Of a stretch of 64,000 nucleotides of DNA, positions 5,721 through 63,709 are shown one piece after another (position 1 is the first letter of the stretch; every line of letters begins with the position of its first letter). The stretch is from Candidatus Peribacter sp. (GTDB taxonomy: Bacteria; Patescibacteriota; Gracilibacteria; Peribacterales; Peribacteraceae). The position numbers and the translations under genes were made by a program. The notes beneath the pieces are model-generated. The model did not search any database, was not told where the DNA came from, and saw only the letters and a list, made by a program, of their open reading frames with translations. The DNA lies in the NCBI GenBank assembly GCA_018652955.1, contig JABIBA010000013.1, positions 164,253-228,252 on the forward strand, read 5' to 3'.

Positions 5721-6339
5721 TAACAGTTCCCGCCTTTAAAGGTCTTGAGCTTATTTCTGATAGCAAGGTTGCACAGAGGCCCGAAAATAACTTTCGTTCT
5801 TGATCTGAAAGTTCTGCAAGCTGATCCCATTTTTCAAGCGAGGATAGTGTGAGAAATGTTTTCTGTGCACTGGAACAGTTCGAAAAATATGCATTCTCTG
5901 CATCGGGTAGCATTCCTAAAATCTTAAGTAGTCGAATCGTAAATGGTAGGACGGCATGTTCTGGGTGGTCGCTGCATCGCTGTAGAAAATGGAGAGTAGC
6001 TTCAAATAAATCTTTCATTGGTTCCTCGTCGTGCAGTGTATTTAGCAGAAGCTCCATTCCTTGTTGTGCACTTAAAAATGCTGAGATGTCTCTGCAATCA
6101 AACGTTGATACTTTTTGCACATCAGAGACCATAAATCCTGCAGATCCTTCTCGTGCTTGGAGTTTTACGTGTTGCATTGGAAGTAGTGATCCACCCATTT
6201 TACTACCGAGCTTGCGCACACTGCGTGCTCTGGCGGCAATTTTCCCTCGCTCTTTTGTAAACAGAATACAAAAGCGATCTGCTTCACCAACATCATGCGT
6301 ATTGAGGATGATCGCTTCTAGGGAAATAGTATTTCCCAT
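5689..6339 (-). CDS. recO: DNA repair protein RecO
   Basis: N-terminal OB-fold block LEAIILNTHDVGEADRFCILFTKERGKIAARARSVRK. Start set at internal ATG 6339, directly after the ftsX stop (6342). Confidence 0.8.
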   Translation of the reverse strand: MGNTISLEAIILNTHDVGEADRFCILFTKERGKIAARARSVRKLGSKMGGSLLPMQHVKLQAREGSAGFMVSDVQKVSTFDCRDISAFLSAQQGMELLLNTLHDEEPMKDLFEATLHFLQRCSDHPEHAVLPFTIRLLKILGMLPDAENAYFSNCSSAQKTFLTLSSLEKWDQLAELSDQERKLFSGLCATLLSEISSRPLKAGTVINDVRSASAL

Positions 6340-8399: not shown

Positions 8400-11300
8400 G
8401 TGACCCCATTCCGACGACGCAGTTTTCACTCTAGGACTCTCGGTGTTAAACGCACTGAGCGGCCTCGTATCTCTGTAGGATTCTCACGAATCTCGCAGGG
8501 TATTGCTCATGGAGCAAAGCGCGCCCTTCGGTTTCGTCCGAGGCGCAGTGAGAAAAAATCATTGTTTATAAAAGCAGGAATTGGTGTAGTCGTTGCAGGA
8601 ATTGCCTACAGCTTATTGATATGGTTTACACTTCCAGATATTTCGGATCCTAGTAGTTTACTTGCTTCACAGAGCACGGTTATTACGGATCGAAATGGTA
8701 TAGAGCTCTATCGACTCTTTAATGAAGAGGATCGTACGTTTATTCCTGGTGGCAGTATTCCTGTGCACATGAAGCGTGCAGCAATTGCGATTGAAGATGA
8801 ACGTTTTTACGATCGTGGCTGTCTAGATATGCGTGCGATTGCTCGTGCAGTTGTAAAGCTCGGTCGTGCTGGTGGAGGTTCTACTATTACAAGACAGCTT
8901 GCACGTAACGCACTTAACTTGCAGCAGGAAAATAGATATCAGCGAAAGATAAAAGAATTTATTTTAGGATGTCAGCTAGAAGGACAGTTTGAAAAAGAAG
9001 AGCTACTGGAACTGTATTTAAACTGGATTCCATTTGGTCGTAATGCCTACGGAGTGGAGCAGGCTGCTAAGCGGTATTTTAATTCCACTGCAGACAAGCT
9101 TACGCTTGCACAGTCTGTCATTCTTGCATCACTTCCGCAGAGACCTTCGTACTTTAGTCCGTATGGAGTACATGTCCATACAGAGGTAGATGATATTGTG
9201 CACGAAGGAGTTATTGATGGATCTATTACAAAGATTTCAGATATCAATCCAGAAAATATAACGATTGGTCTTCTTGGAGGACACGCTGGAACAGGTTCTG
9301 TCCTTCTCTATATAGGAGGTCGTACAGATCAGGTTCTTCGTAACATGCAAAACCAAGAGTTTATTACAGAGGCTGAGCGTCTTGAGGCATTAGAAGAATT
9401 AGAAGAAATGACATTCGAACCATCTCGTGAAGATATTCGTGCTCCACACTTTGTGTTGTGGGTACGAGAGCAAGTAGAGGAAATGTTTGAAGGGACTTCT
9501 GAGGAAGGATTGTTAGAGCAGGGAGGTTTGCGCATTGAGACATCTCTAGACTGGGACATGCAACAGCGTGCAGAGAGTAGTGTCGAGCGACACAGAGAAG
9601 ATCTTGTTGTGCGCTATGGAGGAGAGAACATGGCATTAGTTGCCATAGACCCTCAAACAAACGAGATCGTTTCCTATGTTGGAAACATGGACTATAACGA
9701 TACGGAAAATGGAGGAAAGATCGACATGGCGCGCTCACCGCGTCAGCCTGGATCTTCGTTTAAGCCATTTGTGTACGCGTCTGCATTCCAGAAAGGATAT
9801 AGTCCTGCTACTCCGATTTATGATGTAGAAACAAAGATAGGAGATGACGAGCCGCAAAACTTCGATGGTAGATTTATGGGACTTATGACCATGCGAAGTG
9901 CTCTTGGTGCTTCACGAAATGTTCCAGCTGCTAAGGCATATTTCTTAGGAGGTGAAGAGAATCAAATCTTAACGTTGGTGTCATCACTTGGAGCACCTAC
10001 TCCACTGGAAAGAAAAGAAGAGTTACAACTAGAGCGTGGAGAGTTTGATTACGGATGGCCACTTGCATTGGGTGCTGCAGAAACACCACTGCTTGAAATG
10101 GTAAATGCCTACGGTGCGATTGCACGTGGAGGTCGCGCTAAGCCTATTGTTAGTATTCGAAAAATTACTGATAGAAAAGGAAACATCTTGTTTGGTGCAG
10201 ACGATGATAGTGATGGAAAAGAAGTTCTCGACGAACGTATCGCGTATCAAATTACTTCTGTTCTAAGCGACGAGTCTGTAAGGCCAGAGGAATACTGGAA
10301 GACACAACTTACTATTCCGGGATTCAAGACTGCTGCAAAAACAGGAACCAGTAACAAGTGTCTCGAGTGGAAAGATGTACAGGTCTATGACACCGAAACT
10401 GGAGATCCAATCCCTGGAAAGAAGCGCAAAGCATGTATGCTTCGAAAGCCTGATAACGCATGGCTTATCGGGTACACACCAAACCTTGTCGCAGGAGTGT
10501 GGGTTGGTAATGCAAACTCTGCTTCGATGTATGACAGAGCTGGAGGCCTAAACACGGCAAGTCCAATCTGGAGAGACTTTATGGCTTCTGTACATAGAAC
10601 AATTGATAATCCAAAAACAGATTTTGATAAGCCTGATGGCATTATCACTCCACAGATCTCCACACTCTCTGGACAGTTTCCAACAGAGTGCACACCCGTT
10701 GCCTTCCGTCGTGCTGATGTGTTCCTTAAAGAGAATGCACCAAAGCTTAAAGATCCTGCATGTGCACATTTGACCATCGACAAAGTAACGCGTCTTCTTG
10801 CATCAGAAGAATGTCCTACAGACGCACAAGAAGAGGGGAGCTTTATTGTTGCCAAAAGCCTTCTTCCAGACCGTTGGCCTACGTGGGAAGACGGTGTGCG
10901 CAAGTGGGTTGGAGAGCAGATGGAGCTTTGGTATGCAGCACCAGATCATTCGGGAGCTATTATCCCAATGCCAGTTGCTCCTACGGAAACCTGCACGCTA
11001 GAGCTCACTCCTGGGCGTCTTGAAAAGCCAGAAGTACGTATAACCAGTCCTGCATCTAATGGACGCGTTTCCTACCCTGCGTTTGTTCCAAAAATCAAGG
11101 TTACTTCGAAATCTAAGATTCACTCTGTGATGTACACAGTAGATGGACGTACTGTGGCAAAACTTGAGGAGGAGCCTTTCTCTAGGCGCGTACGTGTTCC
11201 TCGAACAATTAAGGAAACAGGAATGCACACATTGAAAGTTACACTCACAGACGAGTACTTCAATACTGCAACGCACAGTATTAAATTTTCGTTTGGTGAT

Positions 11301-11636
11301 GCAGCAACCTCTCCACGTGGAGAGTCATCACGTGGAGAGTCATCGCAAGAGCAAATTAGTGAGAACCTGAGTGTCCTGTTTACACAGCCGGAAGAAAGTA
11401 TCAGCGTTCCTATTCGTGCACGAGTATCATTGAGTGCAGAAGTGTCTGGTGCAGAAAGTGATATCAAACACGTGCAGTTCTTTGTTGGTGATACGCTTCT
11501 TACTACGGAAGAAGAAGGCCCGTATGAAATGTCTTGGAATCACCGTCTAGACTCAGGGGAGTACACACTAAAAGTTGTGGTAACTGATGAGGAAGGAAAC
11601 ACTGCAGAAGATACTCAAACACTGACGGTGGAATAG
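8400..11636 (+). CDS. bifunctional class A penicillin-binding protein (GT51 transglycosylase + transpeptidase) with C-terminal Ig-like domains
   Basis: GT51 blocks EDERFYDRG, GGSTITRQLARN, RKIKEF. Transpeptidase SSFK (SxxK), SRN (SxN), KTGTSN (KTG). There is no in-frame ATG before the TM anchor, so GTG 8400 is proposed as the start. The ORF-track start at 8301 overlaps the divergent gene. Confidence 0.9.
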   Translation: MTPFRRRSFHSRTLGVKRTERPRISVGFSRISQGIAHGAKRALRFRPRRSEKKSLFIKAGIGVVVAGIAYSLLIWFTLPDISDPSSLLASQSTVITDRNGIELYRLFNEEDRTFIPGGSIPVHMKRAAIAIEDERFYDRGCLDMRAIARAVVKLGRAGGGSTITRQLARNALNLQQENRYQRKIKEFILGCQLEGQFEKEELLELYLNWIPFGRNAYGVEQAAKRYFNSTADKLTLAQSVILASLPQRPSYFSPYGVHVHTEVDDIVHEGVIDGSITKISDINPENITIGLLGGHAGTGSVLLYIGGRTDQVLRNMQNQEFITEAERLEALEELEEMTFEPSREDIRAPHFVLWVREQVEEMFEGTSEEGLLEQGGLRIETSLDWDMQQRAESSVERHREDLVVRYGGENMALVAIDPQTNEIVSYVGNMDYNDTENGGKIDMARSPRQPGSSFKPFVYASAFQKGYSPATPIYDVETKIGDDEPQNFDGRFMGLMTMRSALGASRNVPAAKAYFLGGEENQILTLVSSLGAPTPLERKEELQLERGEFDYGWPLALGAAETPLLEMVNAYGAIARGGRAKPIVSIRKITDRKGNILFGADDDSDGKEVLDERIAYQITSVLSDESVRPEEYWKTQLTIPGFKTAAKTGTSNKCLEWKDVQVYDTETGDPIPGKKRKACMLRKPDNAWLIGYTPNLVAGVWVGNANSASMYDRAGGLNTASPIWRDFMASVHRTIDNPKTDFDKPDGIITPQISTLSGQFPTECTPVAFRRADVFLKENAPKLKDPACAHLTIDKVTRLLASEECPTDAQEEGSFIVAKSLLPDRWPTWEDGVRKWVGEQMELWYAAPDHSGAIIPMPVAPTETCTLELTPGRLEKPEVRITSPASNGRVSYPAFVPKIKVTSKSKIHSVMYTVDGRTVAKLEEEPFSRRVRVPRTIKETGMHTLKVTLTDEYFNTATHSIKFSFGDAATSPRGESSRGESSQEQISENLSVLFTQPEESISVPIRARVSLSAEVSGAESDIKHVQFFVGDTLLTTEEEGPYEMSWNHRLDSGEYTLKVVVTDEEGNTAEDTQTLTVE
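11314..11343 (+). repeat. perfect 15-nt tandem duplication (cacgtggagagtcat x2) inside PBP1A linker
   Basis: Units at 11314-11328 and 11329-11343. In frame, encoding RGESS-RGESS between the two Ig-like domains. Confidence 0.9.
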
Positions 11637-51887: not shown

Positions 51888-52229
51888 ATGCGAGTAAAGA
51901 CTGGTTACATACGAAGTCGGCGTCACAAGAAAATTCGCAACCTTGCGAAAGGATACCGTGGGATGCGTAACTCTACATTCAAGAAGGCGAACGAAGCGGT
52001 GATGAAGGCAGGACAGCACGCTTACATCGACCGTAAAAAGAAGAAGCGCACATTCCGCGCACTCTGGATTACGCGTATTAACGCAGCTGTTGCAGAGCAT
52101 GGTATGAACTACTCACGCTTTATCAAGGCTCTTAAGGATAAGAACGTAGAGCTCGACCGTAAGGCACTCTCAGAACTTGCAGTAAATGACCCTAAGGTCT
52201 TTGCAGCAGTAGTAAAGGCGGTTGCGTAG
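51888..52229 (+). CDS. rplT: 50S ribosomal protein L20
   Basis: [25 protein letters not shown] and [19 protein letters not shown] blocks. Confidence 0.93.
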
Positions 52230-52268
52230 TCTTGATAAATCATACCGAAGAGGTATACCGTATTTGTA

Positions 52269-52895
52269 ATGTCTAACCCTGCATCCAAATCCTCTGAACG
52301 TTTTGTCATCGCTTTTACAAGTTTGTATGTGTTAGCCGCTTCTGTTTTTTATGTTCAGAATAGAAACTGGGAGTTTATATTGTATGTCTTTGTGGTGATA
52401 GTTGCAGGTCTACTGATAAAAAATATTCATAGTAAGGTACATTTTTCTACAGGTATTTTGTGGTGCCTTTCTATCTGGGGGCTTATGCACATGTTAGGAG
52501 GATTGATTCAGATTCCTATCTCTTGGCCACACAATGGGGACAGCACAGTGCTGTATAGCCTGTGGTTGATACCAGACTACTTTAAATATGATCACTTAGT
52601 GCACGGATATGGGTTCGGTGTGTGTACGTGGGTGTGTTGGCAGGTGCTACGTCCTATTGTTACTGGAACACATGAATATGTATCAGAAATTGTTCTCGCA
52701 GTCCTCGCAGCCAATGGACTCGGGGCATTTAACGAGCTGATAGAATTCTTTGCGGTACTGATTATCCCGAGTACGAATGTTGGTGGGTACATCAATACAG
52801 GATGGGATCTTGTATTTAATCTCATCGGATCACTAATAGCCGCATGTATTATTTGGTTCGGTAAACCAATTGATATCGATCTCCAGAAGAATTAG
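52269..52895 (+). CDS. polytopic membrane protein (possibly DUF2238/YjdF-like)
   Basis: 208 aa, ~6 hydrophobic helices. YDHLVHGYGFG and NELIEF blocks weakly recall DUF2238. Not verified. Confidence 0.45.
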   Translation: MSNPASKSSERFVIAFTSLYVLAASVFYVQNRNWEFILYVFVVIVAGLLIKNIHSKVHFSTGILWCLSIWGLMHMLGGLIQIPISWPHNGDSTVLYSLWLIPDYFKYDHLVHGYGFGVCTWVCWQVLRPIVTGTHEYVSEIVLAVLAANGLGAFNELIEFFAVLIIPSTNVGGYINTGWDLVFNLIGSLIAACIIWFGKPIDIDLQKN

Positions 52896-53542
52896 CTCTG
52901 CTTCTCTTTCTTTTGCAGCTCTTGCTCTTCGAGTGATGCTTTAATACGCATGGTCGCAATGATTCCTGCACGCTCAGATTCATCAAGTTTCATCTTGATG
53001 TATTTAACAGTCTCTTCGAGGTCTGGGATCATCTTGTGTTCCAAAGCATTTACACGACGACGTGTTGTCTCAAGCTCGATTGCCATAGCTTCTGCTTGCT
53101 TCTCTATTTGTGCGAGATTGATGAGTACTTCGAATACTTGTTCAAGTGCTTCTACAGCTTCATCAAACATTGCGTTGGTTCCTGCATATCCGTAAGACTT
53201 AATGGTTCCTTCTTTAGAAATCGTAAAGTTTGGGATCTTCACACTCATGACGCTCTTGGTTTCTACTTCCAGTTCGATCTTTGCTTGTGGGCTGCTGAGC
53301 GCGTTCTGGAGCTGTGCATCTGTCATCCATGCAGAAGCTGCAAGGAACTTCTTAAACACGTTTCCAAGCTCTTCCTCGACCTCTTCACGGAGTGTCTTTG
53401 CCTGTCTGACAATACCCATAAACTGTTGCATCAGTCCGTCTTGTTTGTCCTTCAGGAGCTTGTGACCTCGCTTAGAAGACTTATGTCTCCTCTTGAGTTC
53501 CATGAGGGCCATGCGTGTTGGGTTGACGTTTAAGAGAGCCAT
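52892..53542 (-). CDS. ntpD: V/A-type ATPase subunit D
   Basis: MALLNVNPTRMALMELKRRHKSSKRGHKLLKDKQD N-terminus is diagnostic. Confidence 0.9.
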   Translation of the reverse strand: MALLNVNPTRMALMELKRRHKSSKRGHKLLKDKQDGLMQQFMGIVRQAKTLREEVEEELGNVFKKFLAASAWMTDAQLQNALSSPQAKIELEVETKSVMSVKIPNFTISKEGTIKSYGYAGTNAMFDEAVEALEQVFEVLINLAQIEKQAEAMAIELETTRRRVNALEHKMIPDLEETVKYIKMKLDESERAGIIATMRIKASLEEQELQKKEKQS

Positions 53543-53544
53543 AA

Positions 53545-54318
53545 TTAGCCTTTGGAAGGGGTAGGATTCTTTTTAAGTTCTGCGTAGAGCGCTACGGTAC
53601 ACACCATAAAGAAGACACCAGCGAAGGCATCGACAAAGTCTGTGAGTACTGCAGCGAGCGTAACAAGACGCTCATCAATTGTTGTTGTAATTGCGACGAT
53701 AATGCCATCGATAATTCCTACAGGAATAAAGATGCAGATTGCGATGAGCATAAGAGGCCAAAATACCTCCCACGTTCTTCCTTTTACAAAGTCTTTACTC
53801 TTATCGAGCACTGGGCGCCCGTAGGCAACTTTTCCTTCTTCAATGAGCATGATGTCGTAGAAGATTGTGCGTACGGAGTAGATGATTCCAGGAACGATGA
53901 GAAGCACACACCAAAGCAGTGTGATGATTCCTCGTAAGATTTCTAGTAGTGCTAGTGGTCCAATAAATTTGTATCCTTCTTTGCGTACCGCTTTAAACGA
54001 AGTGCGGTTGCGTCCAGCAGGGCTACTTACCAATCGCTTCGCAACAGTAAGTACACATGCCTGCCCCCAGAAGAGGAAGAAGAACAGTGCAACGAGCAGA
54101 GGAACAAAGAGTGCAATTTCCATCGCAGTAAATGATGCGAGTTTCACGCCGTCTACATCCAATCCTTGTGCACCTGCCTCTGCAACACCGATCATTCCGC
54201 TTAGTGCATCCATGAATGCAATCGGAAGGAAGAACATCCAGAAAGCGATTTCATTGAGCACAGGTTGCTTCTTGTAGAAGCTCCAAGATGTGCCGATGAT
54301 AGAAAGTGGAGAGATCAT
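53545..54318 (-). CDS. polytopic membrane protein of unknown function embedded between V-ATPase B and D genes
   Basis: 257 aa, ~6 TM helices. An 8-nt gap after the B stop and a 2-nt gap before the D start. Not a canonical V/A-ATPase subunit. Confidence 0.55.
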   Translation of the reverse strand: MISPLSIIGTSWSFYKKQPVLNEIAFWMFFLPIAFMDALSGMIGVAEAGAQGLDVDGVKLASFTAMEIALFVPLLVALFFFLFWGQACVLTVAKRLVSSPAGRNRTSFKAVRKEGYKFIGPLALLEILRGIITLLWCVLLIVPGIIYSVRTIFYDIMLIEEGKVAYGRPVLDKSKDFVKGRTWEVFWPLMLIAICIFIPVGIIDGIIVAITTTIDERLVTLAAVLTDFVDAFAGVFFMVCTVALYAELKKNPTPSKG

Positions 54319-54326
54319 ATAGAGAT

Positions 54327-55769
54327 TTATGCAGTTACTGCTTCAGCAGCTTCTTTCTTTTTCTTCATGTAGGTTTCAATCTGTGCAGGCTTAACACGCT
54401 TGAGCTCTGACCGTGGAATCTCTGTAAGGAGGTCCCAACCAATGTTGAGTGAATCAAAGATAGAACGGTTCTCGTTTTCTCCTTGTGTGATAAATTCTTT
54501 CTCGAATCGATCTGCAAACTTAAGGTACGCCTTGTCAGTATCTGAGAGAGAGGACTCTCCAAGGATAACTGCAAGTTCACGTACTTCTACACCACGAGCG
54601 TAACATGCTGTAAGTTGCGCATCCATTCCACTGTGATCTTCACGTGTAACACCTTCTCCTTGAGCCTTACCTTTAAGACGTGAGAGAGATCCCATAGGGA
54701 TAACAGGTGGGAAGATGGTTTTCTGGTGGAGTCCACGGTCGAGACGAATCTGTCCCTCCGTAATATATCCTGTAAGGTCAGGAATTGGGTGAGTAACATC
54801 ATCTTCTGGCATAGTAAGGATCGGAATCTGAGTGATAGATCCTTTCTTTCCTTTAATACGTCCAGCTCGCTCGTACAAAGTTGCAAGGTCCGTATAGAGA
54901 TAACCTGGGTAACCACGTCGACCTGGAACTTCTTTTCGCGCAGCAGAGATTTCTCGAAGCGCTTCACAGTAGTTGGTCATATCTGTAATGATCACTGTTA
55001 CGTGATAGTCCTTTTCGTATGCAAGGTATTCAGCTGCAGTAAGTGCAAGACGTGGAGTAGCGATACGTTCTGCTACTGGGTTGTCTGCAGTGTTAAGGAA
55101 GAGAACCGCACGGCTAAGAGCACCTGTTTTTTCGAACTCGTTTTTAAAGAACTGTGCTTCTTCAAAGGTTACTCCCATCGCTGCGAATACCACTGCGAAC
55201 TTGTCATCCTTCTCTACAGTCTCTGCTCCTTTTCCTTCTGCAACTTCTCCTTCTGTAAGCACACGAGCCTGACGAGCGATTTGTGCTGCAAGCTGAGCGT
55301 GCGGTAGTCCTGCTCCAGAGAAGATCGGAAGCTTCTGTCCTCGTACAAGTGTGTTGAGTACATCAATGGTAGAGATACCTGTTTGGATAAAGTCATCTGG
55401 GAAGTCACGAGATGCAGGGTTGATCGGTGCACCGTTAATATCGAGCTTCTTTTCTGGAACGATCTCAGGACCGTTATCCATTGGCTTACCAGATCCGTTA
55501 AAGATGCGTCCGAGCATATCTTCGGAGACACCAAGTTCGAATGTGCGGCCAAGGAAGCGAACCTTTGTTCCTTCTGTGGTTGCCCCCTGAGCGGACTCAA
55601 AGAGCTGTACGACTGCAAGTCCCTCTCGAGACTCCAGTACTTTACCAAGACGCTTAGAGCCGTCGGTAAGTTCAATTTCGCAGAGTTCATCGTATGCAAC
55701 GCCTTCTACATCCTTAACCATAAGGAGTGGACCGGCGATGTCGTGAACTGTTTTGTAAGCGGTAGACAT
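54327..55769 (-). CDS. ntpB: V/A-type ATPase subunit B
   Basis: 480 aa. Full-length similarity to V-type B (e.g. [51 protein letters not shown]). Confidence 0.95.
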
Positions 55770-55792
55770 AATAAGAGTTGGAAAGTTGGAGA

Positions 55793-57553
55793 TTAGAGGG
55801 AGGAAATTTGGGAACGGATAGTTTCATCAAGTTTGTTAAAGCTCTCTTCGACTTCTTCTTCTGGGAAGAAGCTGGCTTGAGCAATCTCTTCTTTTACAGG
55901 AAGTTCCTGTAGCTTTTTAAATTCGAAGTCTTCTTGAACAATTACTGGCTCTGCCATATCGGCAAATGTAAGGATCGACTTAAGAAGACGGTACTGCTTT
56001 TGAAGAGAGCTGTAGGCATCTACTGGGTCGAATCCGTTTTGGAACAAGAAGTCTTCACGAATCATTCGTGCAGTCTCCATAGTAAGTTGTTCTTTTGGTG
56101 AGAGTGCATCCATACCAACGAGACGTACGATTTCTTCGAGCTTGCTTTCATCCTGCAAGATCTCTTGAGCACGTCGGCGGTTACTTGCGAAGTCTTCTGC
56201 AATTTCTTTTCCGTACCAACCTTCGAGGTTGTCTGCATACAGTGTGTAGCTCTGGAGCCAGTTGATAGCAGGGAAGTGACGCTTGTAAGCAAGCTTCGCA
56301 TCCAATGCCCAGAACACTTTAGTCACACGAAGTGTGTTCTGTGTAACAGGCTCGGAGAAGTCTCCTCCAGGAGGGGACACCGCACCAATAACAGAGAGAG
56401 ATCCTTTTCGGCTGTCGCTACCTGCACACTCCACAATACCTGCACGCTCGTAGAATCCTGCTGTGCGAGATCCTAAGTACGCTGGGTATCCTTCTTCACC
56501 TGGCATTTCTTCGAGACGTCCACTCATCTCACGCATAGCTTCTGCCCAACGTGATGTGGAGTCGGCCATGAGCGCTACATCGTATCCCATATCACGGTAG
56601 TACTCTGCAATAGTGATACCGGTGTATACAGATGCTTCACGAGCAGCCACTGGCATGTTCGAAGTGTTGGCGATCATGATTGTTCTCTTCATCAGAGGCT
56701 CTCCTGAGTTTGGATCTTTAAGGTGAGGGAACTCTGTAAGTACTTCAGTCATCTCGTTACCACGCTCTCCACAACCGATGTACACAATCACCTGCGCGTT
56801 ACAGTACTTCGCAAGAGATTGCTGTGTCACAGTTTTTCCAGCTCCGAAAGGTCCTGGAATCGCACCAGATCCTCCACGAGCAATAGGGAAGAGCATATCA
56901 AGTACGCGCATTCCAGTGATCAGTGGTTCGCTCGGAATAAGCTTTCCCTGCACAGGGCGAGGAATACGAATCGGCCACTTCTGGAGCATCGCTACTTCGT
57001 GCTTCTTTCCATCTGCGTCTTTAATAACAGCGATAACTTCTTCGATCGTAAAGTTTCCCGACTTCACTTCTTCAACTGTTCCACTTAGGTTTGGTGGAAC
57101 CATTACCTTGTGTTCGATTAGCGTTGTTTCTGGAACAGTTCCGAGAATGTCACCACCTGACACTTCGTCACCAACAGAAGCTGTAGCAGTAAAGTCCCAC
57201 TTAGCGCTGCGGCTAAGACCAGGTACTTCGATACCACGAGTAATAAATGGGCTCTGTGCTTCTTTTTCGATGAGCTCTAGCGGACGCTGGATTCCATCGT
57301 AGATAGAAGTAAGAAGACCAGGAGCAAGCTCTACAGAGAGCGTGTTTCCAGTAAGCTCTACAGGCTCACCTGGTCCAATACCAGATGTTTCCTCGTAGAC
57401 CTGAATAGAGGCTTCTTCACCGTGAAGTTCGATAACTTCACCGATGAGTTTCTCTTTCGAGACTTTTACAACCTCGTACATTTTTGCATCGCTCATCCCG
57501 TTGGCAACAACGAGCGGTCCTGCGACTTTGGTAATGGTGGCTGTCTTAGACAT
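55793..57553 (-). CDS. ntpA: V/A-type ATPase catalytic subunit A
   Basis: Walker [20 protein letters not shown] and [31 protein letters not shown] blocks. 586 aa. Confidence 0.95.
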
Positions 57554-57571
57554 TATAAGAAGTGGGAAAAA

Positions 57572-57823
57572 TTATTGATTACAATTTATAGAATTGACTG
57601 CTCTGCTTCTTCGGGATCTTTCGATAATCTCAGTGACTACTCCATCAACAAAACCTTCTTGCACAGCATCCTTTCGTTGCTCTGATGCCTTACCAAAGAA
57701 TCCGAGCATTCCTGGTGCACTGACTAATGGAGATTGCGTAGGCCTATCTGCTTCTGCTCTGCGTAGCGTTGCTTCAGCAATTGTGTCTAATGCCGACTGT
57801 TCCATAGAGAGAGATTTGCTCAT
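57572..57823 (-). CDS. small hypothetical protein (83 aa) between V-ATPase F and A genes
   Basis: Tightly packed: 2 nt after the F stop and 18 nt before the A start. No motif. Coding status inferred from spacing only. Confidence 0.4.
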   Translation of the reverse strand: MSKSLSMEQSALDTIAEATLRRAEADRPTQSPLVSAPGMLGFFGKASEQRKDAVQEGFVDGVVTEIIERSRRSRAVNSINCNQ

Positions 57824-57825
57824 AG

Positions 57826-58176
57826 TTATTGGAGAATATCGGAACCGACTGCGCGTTCGACAATGCGCTTGAGGCGTTGCAAACCGTAGCCGGTTGCTCC
57901 TTCGTGTGAAGGAAGCGGGATAATAGCGGGCAAGGCCCCCTTGGCGAGCTTCTTCTCATCATCTGGAGAAATACCGCCAGCGAGGTCTTCGGTAATAAAT
58001 ATAATTGCGTAGGTGTTTACTTCGATACCACGTTCGTCTTCACGTCGTTCCCTCTTTAGCTTCAGAAGTTGTTCTACAGCTTCTACTGGAGACTCAACAG
58101 GGATTACATCCACACCAAGCAGAGAGAACCCTGCAACTGCATCACGGGAGCCGACGATAGCGGTCTTGTATTTCAT
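57826..58176 (-). CDS. V/A-type ATPase subunit F
   Basis: KTAIVGSRDAVAGFSLLGVDV N-terminus is typical of subunit F. 116 aa. Confidence 0.8.
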   Translation of the reverse strand: MKYKTAIVGSRDAVAGFSLLGVDVIPVESPVEAVEQLLKLKRERREDERGIEVNTYAIIFITEDLAGGISPDDEKKLAKGALPAIIPLPSHEGATGYGLQRLKRIVERAVGSDILQ

Positions 58177-59165
58177 TAGAGTACGTAGTGAGAGGCAGAC
58201 AAAAATGGTGGAAGCATGAGCTTAATTTCTTGAGGGCTCATGTTTGCACGCTTACCAATGAGTAACACTCTCAGGAGTCTCATCTGACTTTGAGCAAGTG
58301 CTGCAAAGGCGAACACCGGTTCGATGCTGAGTGGAACATTCCACATGTGTGCAATGTCATCGGCTGTTACTTTGCTGAGTGCGTGTTCTACTGCGTTAGA
58401 ATCTCCCACTGCCTTGCGTACATTCTCTGCAAGTTCGTAAGGAAGAGTAGATCGATTTATTGCACTGACGATGCCAGGTACACCTTTGGTAAGTGCTGCA
58501 GGAGGAATACTTCCTCCTTCTATAAGATCATCAGCATTTCTTAGTGCTGTGCGAATATTACTGAGGTCGATCTTGTGTTCGACATAAGTTTTTAACGCTT
58601 TAGATCCGCTCGCACGAGCAAGGGAAAGTTGAACAGTTGCAATGTACTGCGCTACTGCACTGTCGATGGACTTTGGAGTTACCTCCTTCATAGCTTTTAC
58701 AGTCTTCACAAATTCTGTGAGGTGAGATGGAAGCGTTCCGATTTCACCTTCATTAACGAGTGCTTCTAGAGCATCTGCTCCGTAGGCAGTCATGGCACCT
58801 GTAGGCTTTGTGCTTACTGCAGATGTTAGTCCGTGATGTGCTTTAAGTAGATACGAAAGCATAGGGGAGTCTTCTTCGAGCCAGAGAATATGGAAGGCAG
58901 GTTTCTTACTTTCTGGGGCCATAATTTCTACCTCTTCTCGTACCCATGCTCCTATCGCAAGAAGGATTTCGTCACTCTTCTTGAGTCCCTGTTCTATAGG
59001 GTTCGTAAGTTTGAGTTCTGTCAAAATAGACTCTGCTTCTGGGAGGTTCGCAGCACCTAGTAAGCGATCTCTATCGCTAGCCGTGAGCAGCAACTGCTGC
59101 AATACACCGGTGCGCCCAGAGGCGTACGCGAAGTGTTGGCCGATAACAGACTGCAATGCGCTCAT
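58176..59165 (-). CDS. ntpC: V/A-type ATPase subunit C (eukaryotic d-like)
   Basis: 329 aa, all-helical. Position between E and F as in ntp/atp V-type operons. Confidence 0.75.
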   Translation of the reverse strand: MSALQSVIGQHFAYASGRTGVLQQLLLTASDRDRLLGAANLPEAESILTELKLTNPIEQGLKKSDEILLAIGAWVREEVEIMAPESKKPAFHILWLEEDSPMLSYLLKAHHGLTSAVSTKPTGAMTAYGADALEALVNEGEIGTLPSHLTEFVKTVKAMKEVTPKSIDSAVAQYIATVQLSLARASGSKALKTYVEHKIDLSNIRTALRNADDLIEGGSIPPAALTKGVPGIVSAINRSTLPYELAENVRKAVGDSNAVEHALSKVTADDIAHMWNVPLSIEPVFAFAALAQSQMRLLRVLLIGKRANMSPQEIKLMLPPFLSASHYVL

Positions 59166-59716
59166 TAGAAGAGAATTTTGGAAGTAGCTAATTCATGTGA
59201 AGGACGTACAACGTGCTCCATGAGATGCTCAAAGGTAAAGTCTTGCTCTTCTTTGTCAGAGACAAAGAGGAAACCTCCTTTAGCATTGGTTGGCTTTTCG
59301 ATACGGAACTGTTCTGACGGACAAATCTTTTTTAGGAGATCTGCGTGCTTGCTACTTGGGTGGATAACACCCTTGTTTTTAATACGCTTGAGACAAGAAC
59401 GGAGCAGTGGCTCTATTTCTTTGTCATCAACTGCACTGAGTTCTTTTGATGCAGTTGCAAACACGTTATCAAGGAGTTCCTTTTTCTTAGCAAGTACCGC
59501 ATTGCGCTTTTGTGCATGTGCATGCGTGTGAGCCTTTGCGGATAGCTGATCCATCTTTTGCTGTTTGCTGACGGCAATTTCTTGCTTCTTCTTTGAGAGA
59601 TTGCGTTCGCTTTCCTCACGCATTTGTGTGAGTGCGCGTTGGTGCTCTGTACGAGCAGAGGCAATCTGCTTGTCAGCTTCGGCGGTGATGGCAGCGAGAA
59701 TATCTTGTAAAGCCAT
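59165..59716 (-). CDS. ntpE: V/A-type ATPase subunit E (peripheral stalk)
   Basis: 183 aa. Long N-terminal coiled coil plus a globular C-terminus (GGFLFVSDKEEQDFTFEHLM). Operon position fits. Confidence 0.8.
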   Translation of the reverse strand: MALQDILAAITAEADKQIASARTEHQRALTQMREESERNLSKKKQEIAVSKQQKMDQLSAKAHTHAHAQKRNAVLAKKKELLDNVFATASKELSAVDDKEIEPLLRSCLKRIKNKGVIHPSSKHADLLKKICPSEQFRIEKPTNAKGGFLFVSDKEEQDFTFEHLMEHVVRPSHELATSKILF

Positions 59717-59748
59717 GACGTAAGGTTGGGAGTTAAATGAGAGAAGAC

Positions 59749-60333
59749 TTACACAACTGGGATGATTCCTACCTTGAAGCTGTTAAGCATGAAGAAAGAA
59801 ATCAAGAATCCAAGAAGAGCGTATGTCTCAACAAGAGCGGCCATAGTAATAACACGACCTGTAAGCTTGTCGTCTTTAGCAAGCATGTGCATACCAGCAG
59901 CACATACCTTCGCCTGGTAAGGAGAAGATGTGAGGCAAGTAATAGCAACAGGCAATGCAGCTGCAAAAAGAATAACACCCTGTGAAAGAGAGATAGCAAC
60001 TGAGCCATCAATTACAGGACCGTAGTTAAAGATGAATAGTAGTGAGATAACCATTCCGTAGAGCCCCTGAGAACCAGGAAGCACCATAAGAGTGATAACC
60101 TTACCAGCGAGTTCAGGCTTCTCTGTAAGAAGACCTGCACCTGCTTGACCAGTCATAGAAACACCAAGGATAGAACCAAGGCAAGAAAGGAAGGTAGCCA
60201 TTGCAGCACCAATGAAGGCAAGTGCAAGACCCCATTGCACAGCACCAGCAACAGAAGATGTTGGGTCTTGTGCGAGTACAGCTACTGGAGCGAAAGCAAC
60301 AGCTGCTGTGATAAGTTTGTAAGATGTTTTCAT
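59749..60333 (-). CDS. ntpK: V/A-type ATPase proteolipid subunit K (duplicated 4-TM c subunit) with N-terminal signal-like extension
   Basis: Aligns with Enterococcus hirae NtpK: VLPGSQGLYG, SPYQAKVCAAG, AALVETYALLGF. Extra N-terminus MKTSYKLITAAVAFAPVAVLAQD. Confidence 0.88.
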   Translation of the reverse strand: MKTSYKLITAAVAFAPVAVLAQDPTSSVAGAVQWGLALAFIGAAMATFLSCLGSILGVSMTGQAGAGLLTEKPELAGKVITLMVLPGSQGLYGMVISLLFIFNYGPVIDGSVAISLSQGVILFAAALPVAITCLTSSPYQAKVCAAGMHMLAKDDKLTGRVITMAALVETYALLGFLISFFMLNSFKVGIIPVV

Positions 60334-60368
60334 GGGAAAACGTGGGAAAGTAAGAAAAAAATATTTGA

Positions 60369-62297
60369 CTAAATTGATCGGCGGAATGGAGAAAACTCCT
60401 TTCCACCACCTTCAAAGAACTGAGAAAAGAACTCAATGAATTGAAGACGACCTGAGTGAATGAAACTTCCAAGCGTATTAAGAGCAATGGATACCATGTG
60501 CCCAGCAAGGAAGATCACAATAATAACAGGGACACCCAACCACACAGGGAAGAGGTTTCCGAGTTCGACTGCTACCTGATTGATAGCTGCAGCAATCGCA
60601 CCAGTTACCAGCCCGAGGGCTAGAATACGTAAGTAACTGAGGCCATTGCTGATCATACCGATAATAAAGTTAACAGATCCTAGTAGTCCTGAGATTGGAC
60701 GCAAGAACCACTTCGCACCGTGTCCTTTACCCCATATCATTAGTCCGATAGCACCGTAGAGAATGTACTTTGCGATCTCGGCCATCTCTGCAGGGGCAAA
60801 TGCCAAGAACAAAATAGATCCCAAGAGAATGTGCGAGGTAAAGTCGACCCAGAATGCTTCTACTTTTTTGCCATGGATCCATTTGTGCATTCCTGCGAGG
60901 AACATCCCAAAGAAGAGGTGTGTTACACCGAGTGCAAGTGAGAGGTTTTGCAGGAAGTCGATACCAGACTGCTTACCGAGGTTCCAGATTTGTCCTTTAA
61001 AGAGTAATCCTTCTGCTCCTTGCTTTGTAAGGAAGGCAGGAACCTGCTCTGGAGTTAACCCAAGCCATCCTCCGAATGGAATTGAAACAAAGAATGTCAT
61101 TACTCCACCAAAGAATAAGAGCCATGGGAGCTTTGCTTCCTCAATAGATTTACGACTCTTTAGAAGATAAATACCAAAGATCAATGCAATGATTGCTCCG
61201 TATCCTGCGTCTGTAAGACAGAGTGAGAAGTACAGGATAAAGAATGGAGATAGAGCTGCTGTAGGGTCCATCTCATTACTAAGAGGAAGACCATACAGGC
61301 CGGTAACACTTTCGAATGGTGCCACAATCTTTTTATTCTTTAGGAGTACTGGTACCTCTTCTCCTTCGTCTGCTTTTACTTTAATAAGAGCGATTGCAGG
61401 GTTGAGTTTTTCAAGTTTCTTCTCTACTTCTTCCATGCGACTTGCAGCCATCCACCCGAGAAGGGTCACGGTAGAGTCTGTTGCAGCCATTGATTCACGT
61501 ACTTCTTGCTTTTGGTCTAGCCAGTGCATGAAGAGTTGTACCTTTAGAAGGTTTGGGAGTTCTACGGCGAGCTTCTTTCTTGCGAGAGCGTTCTTTTCGA
61601 TTGCTTCTTCTAGTGTGCGCTCTGCCATTGTTGCCTCTTCGTAACTTTGGCTAGGGGTAGACTCGAATCTTGGTAGTGTTACGTGTGTCCAACCAAGGCT
61701 CGTAGCTATCTCTTCGAATGTACGGAGATCTTCTTTCCAGATAATGGCTACGAATGCGATTTCACCTTCTTCTTTGTCTGATACTTTCTCTAGAACACTA
61801 CGCTTTATACTTTGTGTCATAGAGTCTTGTAGTTTGTGCTGCGCTGCGGCTGGGAGTGTTCCAAAGATTCGTAATGTATTCTCTGATTCGTTTTGATCTT
61901 GAAGGTTTGCGTTTAGGTTTTTCCATGGAGCAAGGTCTGCACGAAGATCTTTGAGTTCTTGAATCTTGCGCGCTGCCTCTGTGTCTTCTTTTTCTAGAGT
62001 GTGTAGCTGAGACACAATGCCCTGCACATCTGTGTGCTTTGCAGCGTGAATAGTATCTTCTACTGATACTTTCTTATTACAGACTGCGAGTGTCTGCTTA
62101 TCAGCAAAGTCTTTGAGTGTCGTTACAGCAAACGCTACTTCTGCTTCCTTATACTCTACTTCTGTGTGATCCAGTACCTGCTTCTCGGCTGCTGCTCGCA
62201 CATCTATTACTCCTTCGTCGTGGAGCATAGAAATAAGGTCTTCTCGGAGAGAAGAGTGAGCAATTATGCCGACTTTTTGCATTTGTACGAGAACCAT
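60369..62297 (-). CDS. ntpI: V/A-type ATPase subunit I (a-subunit, stator/ion channel)
   Basis: 642 aa. Cytoplasmic coiled-coil N-half and polytopic C-half with the essential Arg block GLSYLRILALGL. Confidence 0.88.
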   Translation of the reverse strand: MVLVQMQKVGIIAHSSLREDLISMLHDEGVIDVRAAAEKQVLDHTEVEYKEAEVAFAVTTLKDFADKQTLAVCNKKVSVEDTIHAAKHTDVQGIVSQLHTLEKEDTEAARKIQELKDLRADLAPWKNLNANLQDQNESENTLRIFGTLPAAAQHKLQDSMTQSIKRSVLEKVSDKEEGEIAFVAIIWKEDLRTFEEIATSLGWTHVTLPRFESTPSQSYEEATMAERTLEEAIEKNALARKKLAVELPNLLKVQLFMHWLDQKQEVRESMAATDSTVTLLGWMAASRMEEVEKKLEKLNPAIALIKVKADEGEEVPVLLKNKKIVAPFESVTGLYGLPLSNEMDPTAALSPFFILYFSLCLTDAGYGAIIALIFGIYLLKSRKSIEEAKLPWLLFFGGVMTFFVSIPFGGWLGLTPEQVPAFLTKQGAEGLLFKGQIWNLGKQSGIDFLQNLSLALGVTHLFFGMFLAGMHKWIHGKKVEAFWVDFTSHILLGSILFLAFAPAEMAEIAKYILYGAIGLMIWGKGHGAKWFLRPISGLLGSVNFIIGMISNGLSYLRILALGLVTGAIAAAINQVAVELGNLFPVWLGVPVIIVIFLAGHMVSIALNTLGSFIHSGRLQFIEFFSQFFEGGGKEFSPFRRSI

Positions 62298-62674
62298 TAC
62301 GCTTTAAAGAGAGAATCTGGATCTTTTGCGATAGTTACGAGCTCTTTTGCTGCGGTAGCTTCGTTTCCTTTTGACTGAGATTCGATGTCTTTTACATCGG
62401 ATTCAGCCTCGTTTTCTGCCGCACTCAAAATTTGAGTGAGCTCTGTTTCACTGTATTTCTTTAAATCAGCCTTGGCAGCGGTTTTCATTTCCTCTGTTGC
62501 CTGTGCCTCTTTTTTGGCTACAGCTTGCGAAACTTCTTCTTTCTCCTTTTGCATACCAACGAGCTCTTTTTCGACGCGAGCCTTCTCACGTTTTTCGAGT
62601 TCTTGGATCTGAGTAAATGGAGAGGTCCCTGTTGAAGAATTTTGGGAGCCTTGGGTGGTTTGAGTAGGGTTCAT
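62297..62674 (-). CDS. coiled-coil protein, probable V/A-type ATPase peripheral-stalk subunit G/H
   Basis: 125 aa, highly charged helical (EKREKARVEKELVGMQKEKEE..). First gene of the operon, with a 1-nt overlap with subunit I. Confidence 0.5.
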   Translation of the reverse strand: MNPTQTTQGSQNSSTGTSPFTQIQELEKREKARVEKELVGMQKEKEEVSQAVAKKEAQATEEMKTAAKADLKKYSETELTQILSAAENEAESDVKDIESQSKGNEATAAKELVTIAKDPDSLFKA

Positions 62675-62697
62675 AAGAGTTCTGGTAAATCTTGCGG

Positions 62698-62726
62698 ACT
62701 CTACTCACAGTACGCAGAAAAATCAA
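62698..62726 (-). promoter_or_regulatory. candidate V-ATPase operon promoter TTGATT-17nt-TAGAGT
   Basis: -35 is the reverse complement of aatcaa 62721-62726. -10 is the reverse complement of actcta 62698-62703. 23 nt to ATG 62674. Confidence 0.3.
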
Positions 62727-62740
62727 GGCTCTAAGAGCCG
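62715..62740 (-). terminator. weak rho-independent terminator after NIF3-like gene
   Basis: Minus strand reads GGCTC-tta-GAGCC followed by TTGATTTTTCT. The stem is only 5 bp. Confidence 0.3.
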
Positions 62741-62746
62741 TAATTG

Positions 62747-63709
62747 CTACTTCCTCTTCACCCTGATAAACCCAGAGGTATCTATGGTTTTAATACCTTT
62801 ATCTTCCTTTTGGAGCTTATCGATAAGAAGATTGATACCAATGGCATCAGAGGCCATGTGAGAACACTGGATCATATTTACATGATGCTCTTTTGCGGCA
62901 TCGAGGGTTTTCTCGGTAACGTGCATCGAAAGAATGGTTCCTACTCCTGCTTTGCTTTGGGCTACTAGCTGCTGTTCTGGACCATTGGTACCTCCAGTAA
63001 ACTCTGTAGCGACAATCTTTCCTGGGCGACTTGTTGGGCTACCGTTTACGATAAGCGGTGGATTTCCCTTTTTGGCGTAATATTCGTATTCAGGGATTTT
63101 CATCAGTGCATCAATGATTTCACTGAGGTCTTCGAAGTTCTTAGAACAGATGTGCTTTTCCATAAATGCCCACACGAGGTTATCTGTGATGGTGTGGCAG
63201 CAAAATGCTGGAATATCCATAAGTTCTGCAGCACGCTCTGTTCTAAAGAGGTTATCTGCGTGAATAGATCTCCAGATTTTATCCATGCGAGGCTTTAGGT
63301 GTCCTTCGCTGTGGTTAACCGGAACTCCAGCCTTCGCAAGAACATCAACTTGGAGTGGCATAGACTTTTCGAGGTCTGCAAGTGCACGTCCCTCTGGGTG
63401 GTGAATAAAGAGGCAGTCGATCTTTTGTCCTTTTTCACGAAGACGATCTGCGAGCAACACTTCTGGTGTTTCGATATCGATACCCACCATGAGTACTTTT
63501 ACTTCTTCTTTTCCACTGCCGTTAATAATGCGACTGTCTGAGTACGGGTTCCATGTTCGTTCTTCATCAAAAATATCTTTCCTCCAACCTTTTGCGTTCT
63601 TCATCGCCTCTTTTTGTTTTTTAAAGTAGCGATCAAAGTATTTTTTATCACGCACGTCGGCTTGCATACCAAGTTCTACAGCACGCTTAAACATTTTTTC
63701 GAGTTTCAT
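62747..63709 (-). CDS. NIF3 (DUF34)-like dinuclear-metal-centre protein
   Basis: CLFIHHPEG (HHP), FTGGTNG and CSHMASDAIG blocks fit the NIF3-family layout. 320 aa. Not verified. Confidence 0.5.
   Translation of the reverse strand: MKLEKMFKRAVELGMQADVRDKKYFDRYFKKQKEAMKNAKGWRKDIFDEERTWNPYSDSRIINGSGKEEVKVLMVGIDIETPEVLLADRLREKGQKIDCLFIHHPEGRALADLEKSMPLQVDVLAKAGVPVNHSEGHLKPRMDKIWRSIHADNLFRTERAAELMDIPAFCCHTITDNLVWAFMEKHICSKNFEDLSEIIDALMKIPEYEYYAKKGNPPLIVNGSPTSRPGKIVATEFTGGTNGPEQQLVAQSKAGVGTILSMHVTEKTLDAAKEHHVNMIQCSHMASDAIGINLLIDKLQKEDKGIKTIDTSGFIRVKRK

Follow-up and report, generated by a model that had tools for sequence, protein, structure and literature searches.

A six-helix membrane-protein gene as a probable passenger within the V/A-type ATPase operon of a Candidatus Peribacter genome

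What is the gene of a predicted membrane protein doing between the genes for subunits B and D of a rotary ATPase? The question is raised by a 64,000-nucleotide stretch of Candidatus Peribacter sp. DNA (GenBank assembly GCA_018652955.1, contig JABIBA010000013.1, positions 164,253 to 228,252 of the forward strand), here called the window, meaning this stretch at its full length. Its open reading frame (ORF) list, combined with Pfam and NCBIfam profile matches, reveals an entire V/A-type ATPase operon, encoded on the minus strand in the order G-like, I, K, E, C, F, an 83-aa ORF, A, B, a 257-aa ORF, D. The two extra genes, referred to below as x83 (57572..57823, minus strand) and y257 (53545..54318, minus strand), had been noticed in a preliminary description of the sequence as lying 2-18 nucleotides (nt) from their neighbors at the F|A and B|D junctions. 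The ORF list, the profiles and the sequence all confirm this; the gaps read 2 nt from F to x83, 18 nt from x83 to A, 8 nt from B to y257 and 2 nt from y257 to D. That description went on to propose that y257 encodes an accessory, assembly or regulatory subunit of the enzyme, or else a transporter coupled to its ion gradient. The locus proves to be a real variant of operon architecture, and its most likely explanation is mundane: with a probability that we put at about 0.7, y257 is a resident gene of a conserved chromosomal slot that is now a co-transcribed passenger, not a V-ATPase component by origin, and x83 is a species-specific orphan.

The evidence comes mainly from a survey of the family Peribacteraceae with one genome per genus, 60 genera in all. 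A common backbone runs through the family -- q316 or up688, then up320 (a Nif3-like gene), then, where present, y257 in the same orientation, and facing them rplT, rpmI and infC. Up320 was found in 58 of the 60 genomes, adjoining either y257 or the operon, and in seven species of the same genus the arrangement is identical to that of the window. Ten of the 60 genera have y257 at the B|D junction, equally tightly packed; of 26 species-level loci, 15 have it there and 11 behind up320. Recurrence at a fixed operon position, which the preliminary description had asked about for both extra genes, thus holds for y257, while x83 recurs nowhere. Over at least 20 in-operon loci, the distance from B to y257 is mostly between -11 and +44 nt and that from y257 to D mostly between -14 and +30 nt, with a few of the latter reaching 117 nt.

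Y257 does not, however, keep company with the enzyme. It is present in 16 of the 24 genera that have a V-ATPase (not detectable in 8) and in 25 of the 36 that lack one (not detectable in 11), F1 alpha and beta being found in most of those 36. In the V-less genomes, the immediate upstream neighbor of y257 is the Nif3-like gene that in the window stands ahead of the operon. Among the 16 genera with both, 10 have GIKECFAB-y257-D within the backbone slot (across contig breaks in two of them); the six others keep a canonical GIKECFABD operon at another site, with y257 still in the backbone slot between the Nif3-like gene and rplT, directly behind up320 in five of them (up320 was not found in the remaining one, G022). 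A direct B-D junction is seen in 14 of the 24 V-ATPase genera, y257 being elsewhere in the six just mentioned and undetected in eight. A V-ATPase subunit or dedicated accessory would be expected to co-occur with the enzyme and to hold a constant place in its operon, and by these counts y257 does neither, which speaks against the subunit proposal.

The same picture emerges from the trees. A locus tree was built from up to nine backbone-locus proteins of 57 genomes (2849 columns; IQ-TREE quick search, midpoint root). It splits a clade of 13 genomes without y257 from a clade of 44 with it. Two subclades of the latter contain the up320-y257-rplT arrangement only, and all in-operon cases fall in the third (support of 97 in the Shimodaira-Hasegawa-like approximate likelihood ratio test, SH-aLRT), interleaved there with V-less genomes and with genomes carrying canonical operons. 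On this tree, V-ATPase presence changes state at least 11 times, presence of y257 three times and the in-operon state five times; over 10 phylogenetically independent pairs differing in V-ATPase, y257 is unchanged in about 9.8. Y257 thus does not track gain and loss of the enzyme, the very lack of co-occurrence that the preliminary description had named as something that would count against its proposal. The gene tree of y257 has little resolution; where nodes are supported, they agree with the locus tree and bring in-operon copies together with copies behind up320, so that, for example, G044 is the sister of a group made up of the window's genus and G056, and (G045, G064) groups with (G046, G050). 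This last grouping is also an example of how V-less sisters within the in-operon clade keep an orthologous y257. The tree of eight V-ATPase proteins, on the other hand, is incongruent with the locus tree, with in-operon operons appearing in at least three separate places, and from this incongruence we conclude that the V genes have been exchanged within the family around a stationary, backbone-inherited y257. The second, divergent V-ATPase of G069 was tried as a root for the V-gene tree, and with a branch of 9.5 substitutions per site that root was left unused.

Rotary ATPase type is patchy in Peribacteraceae as a whole, with about 24 of the 60 genera having the V-type and most others the F-type; G015 and G081 carry both, and G069 has two V-types. 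With at least 11 switches between F-type and V-type in the 57 genomes, rotary ATPases are evidently often exchanged within the family. One V operon, in G049, may be decaying or subject to recoding: its subunit D match (G049:C25:4894-5535) contains TGA three times in frame, and the genome yielded no A subunit. The I-K-E-C-F genes of G049 (L089) are separated from the Nif3-like gene upstream of them by about 2.2 kb, with two other membrane-protein genes in between.

The history that we favor would run as follows. The home of y257 would be the conserved slot between the Nif3-like gene and the convergent rplT-rpmI-infC group, where it normally follows the Nif3-like gene in transcription. The V genes would have come to flank it in a single clade, GIKECFAB on the upstream side and D on the downstream side; this would take the fewest steps if the whole operon was inserted beside y257 and D then changed places with y257 locally, for instance by tandem duplication and loss. 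Since then y257 would have been transcribed within the operon, probably with translational coupling, and would have stayed under purifying selection for a membrane function of its own, independent of the V-ATPase. Where lineages of the in-operon clade lost the V-ATPase, y257 would have been left behind. The opposite history is also conceivable: an operon ancestral in the slot, insertion of y257 at its B|D junction, and later deletion of the V genes on both sides. What leaves room for it is that the polarity of the rearrangement depends on a midpoint-rooted tree made from the genes of this one locus, both tree and root having that single source. Two further points weigh against our interpretation as a whole. 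Co-transcription has been inferred from spacing only, and the in-operon position has been kept in at least 10 genera despite divergence of y257 to 30-40% identity, which is also what would be expected if y257 had taken on a role in the enzyme in that clade. As for the deletions that the opposite history calls for, no V-gene remnants were seen at E < 0.05 in the up320-rplT slot of 34 V-free loci, except for one 28-bit match at chance level; this is weak evidence against such a past. Under both histories y257 persists, under selection, without the V-ATPase.

There is good reason to regard y257 as a working gene, because its ratio of nonsynonymous to synonymous substitution (dN/dS) is low, it has invariant positions, its fold is predicted with confidence and its tight spacing is conserved. 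The dN/dS value is about 0.08 against the closest available relative (L070), like that of subunits C, E and F, with dS near saturation in this comparison. Among 33 aligned homologues, 12 positions are invariant and about 30 nearly so, and these cluster in an N-terminal amphipathic helix, in a basic loop after the second transmembrane (TM) helix (K-R-x4-S-x-A-G-R-x-R-T-S-F-x-A-V-R) and in a PG..Y..RT motif. AlphaFold2 predicts a six-TM helical bundle, with a predicted local distance difference test score (pLDDT) of 90.2 and a predicted template-modelling score (pTM) of 0.88; the roughly six TM segments that had been read from the sequence are thus borne out at high confidence. The topology is probably N-in/C-in.

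The relationships of y257 are more elusive. It falls below every Pfam and NCBIfam threshold (DUF975 at 14.1 bits against a cut-off of 34.8, LiaF-TM at 19.3 against 27, and a weak YciC match). Among the 33 homologues, seven match GPDPase_memb (best E = 1.3e-6) and three match DUF975 (best E = 5e-7), so that by sequence the family appears distantly DUF975/GPDPase_memb-like. The recurrent weak matches to DUF975 (PF06161), GPDPase_memb (PF10110), UPF0259/YciC and DUF7847 are to multi-TM helical proteins of similar size; those of the window's protein stay below the gathering thresholds, however, and the y257 family as detected is confined to metagenome-assembled genomes (MAGs) of Peribacteria. No function is known for any of these families, so the likeness offers no clue to mechanism. 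A search of 185,579 species genomes yielded 26 y257 loci, all in Peribacteria MAGs (one labelled only "bacterium" and one evidently mislabelled), and no description of the embedded gene or of the arrangement was found in the literature. Y257 is best read as a conserved, well-folded, lineage-specific membrane protein with a role independent of the V-ATPase.

A few of its orthologues are unusual. In G056 (L051, around 12353) there is no ATG, GTG or TTG near the expected start, the aligned start is ATC, and the frame opens 8 nt ahead of B's stop codon; a non-canonical start or an assembly error is possible. In one V-less subclade (G010, G018, G047, G053, G055, G067, G073, G077 and G078) the protein is longer, about 305-348 aa, with an extra insert of some 60-90 residues between two conserved halves. 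An apparent split of the gene in L138, considered as a possible pseudogene, is really a scaffold gap of Ns.

Could y257 nevertheless serve the enzyme in the clade where it sits inside the operon? It might have an older role elsewhere and have been recruited in the B|y257|D clade as a lineage-specific V-ATPase accessory, such as a chaperone for assembly of I and K or a stator-anchoring or regulatory partner. We consider this quite unlikely, although a stable B|y257|D order with near-zero gaps in at least 20 loci and at least 10 genera is what recruitment would leave, the placement would match expression of y257 to that of the structural genes, and the purifying selection on y257 is as strong as on the core subunits. 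There is no family-wide co-occurrence of the two; 14 V-ATPase genera have the canonical B-D junction, eight of them without detectable y257; in-operon and out-of-operon copies interleave on the tree and form no separate in-operon subfamily; and y257 resembles none of the known subunits or assembly factors of V-ATPases. Beyond positional stability, no measurement here supports recruitment. A wider version, in which y257 of the in-operon clade was co-opted as a membrane-embedded partner of the V/A-ATPase (in assembly, anchoring or regulation) and micro-ORFs at the junctions, like x83, are fast-evolving modulators of the enzyme, seems to us distinctly unlikely. The other possibility is a transport role: y257 might be a small transporter or channel, for a solute or for ions, that exploits or modulates the ATPase's Na+ gradient and owes its place in the operon to this. 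There is a parallel for such functional coupling in the ntp operon of Enterococcus hirae, which ends with the K+ transporter gene ntpJ, and y257 is indeed polytopic, with six TM helices. Its best fold neighbors in the PDB are transporter-like as well: human hCTL1 (9qu3; E = 0.029, TMq 0.46), CysZ (3tx3; TMq 0.45) and yeast Pns1 (9f63; TMq 0.47). All of these matches, however, lie under the same-fold threshold of 0.5 (template-modelling scores, or TM-scores, of 0.45-0.47), with a root-mean-square deviation of 7-9 A, sequence identity of 8-15% and none at E <= 0.001, and a CysZ/CTL-like transporter fold was rejected on the TM-score and the best E value. Nor is there any sequence match to transporter families or to solved structures (the y257 profile found none among PDB sequences up to E = 10), and y257 is equally frequent in genomes that have the F-type ATPase only. 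We regard the transporter as very unlikely.

The locus therefore carries little weight as a claim for a new subunit, since the evidence points the other way. It does offer a clean and well-sampled case of an unrelated resident gene embedded in mid-operon in a highly conserved enzyme, in an arrangement that is long-lasting and in which the gene has outlived repeated loss of the enzyme genes. It is also a caution that tight operon linkage in the reduced genomes of the Candidate Phyla Radiation (CPR) need not mean shared function.

The second extra gene, x83, presents a different problem. As to whether it is a gene at all, the two signs proposed in the preliminary description disagree: x83 is absent or non-syntenic in all relatives, and yet it has a coding signature in its gene-like codon usage. 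No homologue was found in 40 relatives, and searches of a library of 5.8 billion protein clusters and, with no word filter, of 1.84 billion representative proteins returned only x83 itself. Its site is empty in the two closest relatives, G005 and L070, where the F|A gap is 15-20 nt and the pyrimidine-rich leader of A (TTTCCCAC...ATG) comes right after the stop of F (CAATAA). The F|A spacers do not align as DNA, and the genome contains no other copy of the window's spacer. These absences, together with a low-confidence single-sequence AlphaFold2 model (two helices and a linker, pLDDT 67) and the lack of any Shine-Dalgarno-like sequence upstream in the stretch that was read, are what would be seen if the spacer were inserted non-coding DNA with one reading frame open by chance. 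We think this unlikely in light of a codon score of 0.216, which is in the range of real-gene windows (0.30 +/- 0.125) and far above the off-frame values (-0.20, with a 95th percentile of -0.014); an ORF of this length, moreover, arose in only 2 of 2000 shuffles of the spacer, and each of the five other long F|A spacers examined is occupied, over 79-92% of its length, by an ORF on the same strand whose codon score is positive.

Small same-strand, codon-positive ORFs are indeed found at the F|A junction elsewhere in the family: in G001 (79 and 58 aa), G007 (96 aa), G004 (55 aa), G082 (72 aa), L121, L123 and L131. Five of them (the second of G001, that of G004, and those of L121, L123 and L131) make up one weak family from at least three genera, with the motif F-x-P-R-N-F-x-E-Q-Q-x-V-D. 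X83 shows no homology by BLASTP to the F|A small ORFs of other species, and scores 4.3 bits against the hidden Markov model (HMM) of this weak family. We read x83 as a young or fast-evolving species-specific orphan gene in an insertion-tolerant, hypervariable F|A junction; it is probably translated, but does not count among the conserved parts of the enzyme. Such ORFs are not limited to the F|A junction. Small hydrophilic same-strand ORFs, mostly unrelated to each other, lie at the I|K, F|A, A|B and C|F junctions of several Peribacteraceae V operons (L062 of G082 at 5919-6254, 8753-8971 and 11083-11415; also L123, L129, L131 and L138). At the C|F junction of L131, from a marine member of the family, there is another passenger, a 155-aa four-helix-bundle gene of the 23S_rRNA_IVP type (PF05635, E = 1.8e-33). 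The V-operon junctions of Peribacteraceae, then, tolerate passenger genes and short orphan ORFs. The pyrimidine-rich leader, TTTCCCAC(T)TC..TATA-ATG, which is not a Shine-Dalgarno sequence, precedes A in the window (57554-57571) and in L014, L016 and L070, and the same conserved leader precedes the small inserted ORFs of G001.

The enzyme itself is an ordinary NtpK-type V/A-ATPase, with subunits D, F, C, E, I and K all in canonical order and matched above the Pfam or NCBIfam cut-offs. All of its genes are on the minus strand. Subunit I (a; 642 aa) lies at 60369..62297 (PF01496 V_ATPase_I, E = 3.4e-23) and is followed by subunit K, the c-ring proteolipid (ATP-synt_C; 194 aa, 59749..60333), which scores 151.6 bits with the NtpK equivalog PRK06558, against a cut-off of 127. 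Then come subunit E (vATP-synt_E; 183 aa, 59165..59716; PF01991, E = 3.2e-6), subunit C (d/AC39, vATP-synt_AC39; 329 aa, 58176..59165; PF01992, E = 2.4e-19) and subunit F (ATP-synt_F; 116 aa, 57826..58176; PF01990, E = 9.2e-15). The catalytic subunit A (586 aa, 55793..57553) matches PF00006, PF02874, PF16886 and PF22919, the last two being the ATP-synt_ab_Xtn and ATP-synt_VA_C domains, the non-homologous insert and the C-terminal domain that mark it as V/A-type; subunit B (480 aa, 54327..55769) matches PF00006, PF02874 and likewise PF22919. The central-stalk subunit D (ATP-synt_D; 216 aa) is encoded at 52892..53542 (PF01813, E = 2.1e-56). The 125-aa gene that opens the operon (62297..62674), described earlier as G/H-like, agrees with this in its position, which is conserved in relatives, and in its coiled-coil composition; it has no significant match in Pfam, NCBIfam or the PDB, and we presume it to be a G/H-like subunit of the peripheral stalk. 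When the PDB was searched with its single sequence and with a profile in an attempt to identify it as subunit G, all matches were to coiled coils at chance level, yeast subunit G among them at E of about 5-8. No strong promoter or terminator consensus was seen inside the operon. With the spacing given above, x83 and y257 are very probably co-transcribed with the enzyme genes, as the preliminary description had held.

The 1.2 Mb genome, that of a member of the Peregrinibacteria within the CPR, is 99% complete, and since it contains neither an F-type gamma subunit nor F1 alpha/beta, the operon of the window is its sole rotary ATPase. K aligns with E. hirae NtpK (2bl2) over 150 residues (E = 5e-29), and the equivalents of the NtpK Na+ ligands L61, T64, Q65, Q110 and E139 are all kept except for T64, which is replaced by S; in the alignment they fall in L-P-G-S-Q, at the Q of SPYQAKV and at the E of ALVETYA. 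Judging from these residues, the enzyme is probably a Na+-translocating V/A-type ATPase like that of Enterococcus. V-type ATPases with Na+ motifs have already been reported in CPR MAGs.

The core order -- stalk gene, I, K, E, C, F, A, B, D -- is shared with the operons of the Na+-translocating V-type enzyme of E. hirae (ntpFIKECGABDHJ) and of the V/A-ATPase of Thermus thermophilus (atpGIKECFABD). The E. hirae operon likewise carries non-enzyme passengers, ntpH and ntpJ; these stand at the end of the operon, whereas the extra genes of the window are internal, at F|A and B|D. The window's first gene, unlike the stalk gene of E. hirae or Thermus, matches no G/H profile, and its K, unlike E. hirae NtpK, has about 30 additional residues at its N-terminus, resembling a signal peptide (MKTSYKLITAAVAFAPVAVLAQ).

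Upstream of the operon lies up320 (62747..63709, minus strand), the Nif3/DUF34-like gene, whose match to PF01784 (E = 1.6e-4) is below the cut-off. Between it and the G-like gene, at 62727..62739 on the minus strand, there is a terminator-like hairpin, GGCTCTTAGAGCC followed by a T-rich tail, identified by consensus match only. The downstream flank (51888..52895) is convergent with the operon: a DUF2238 membrane-protein gene (52269-52895, plus strand) comes first, and behind it rplT (51888-52229, plus strand) forms the conserved right-hand border of the slot.

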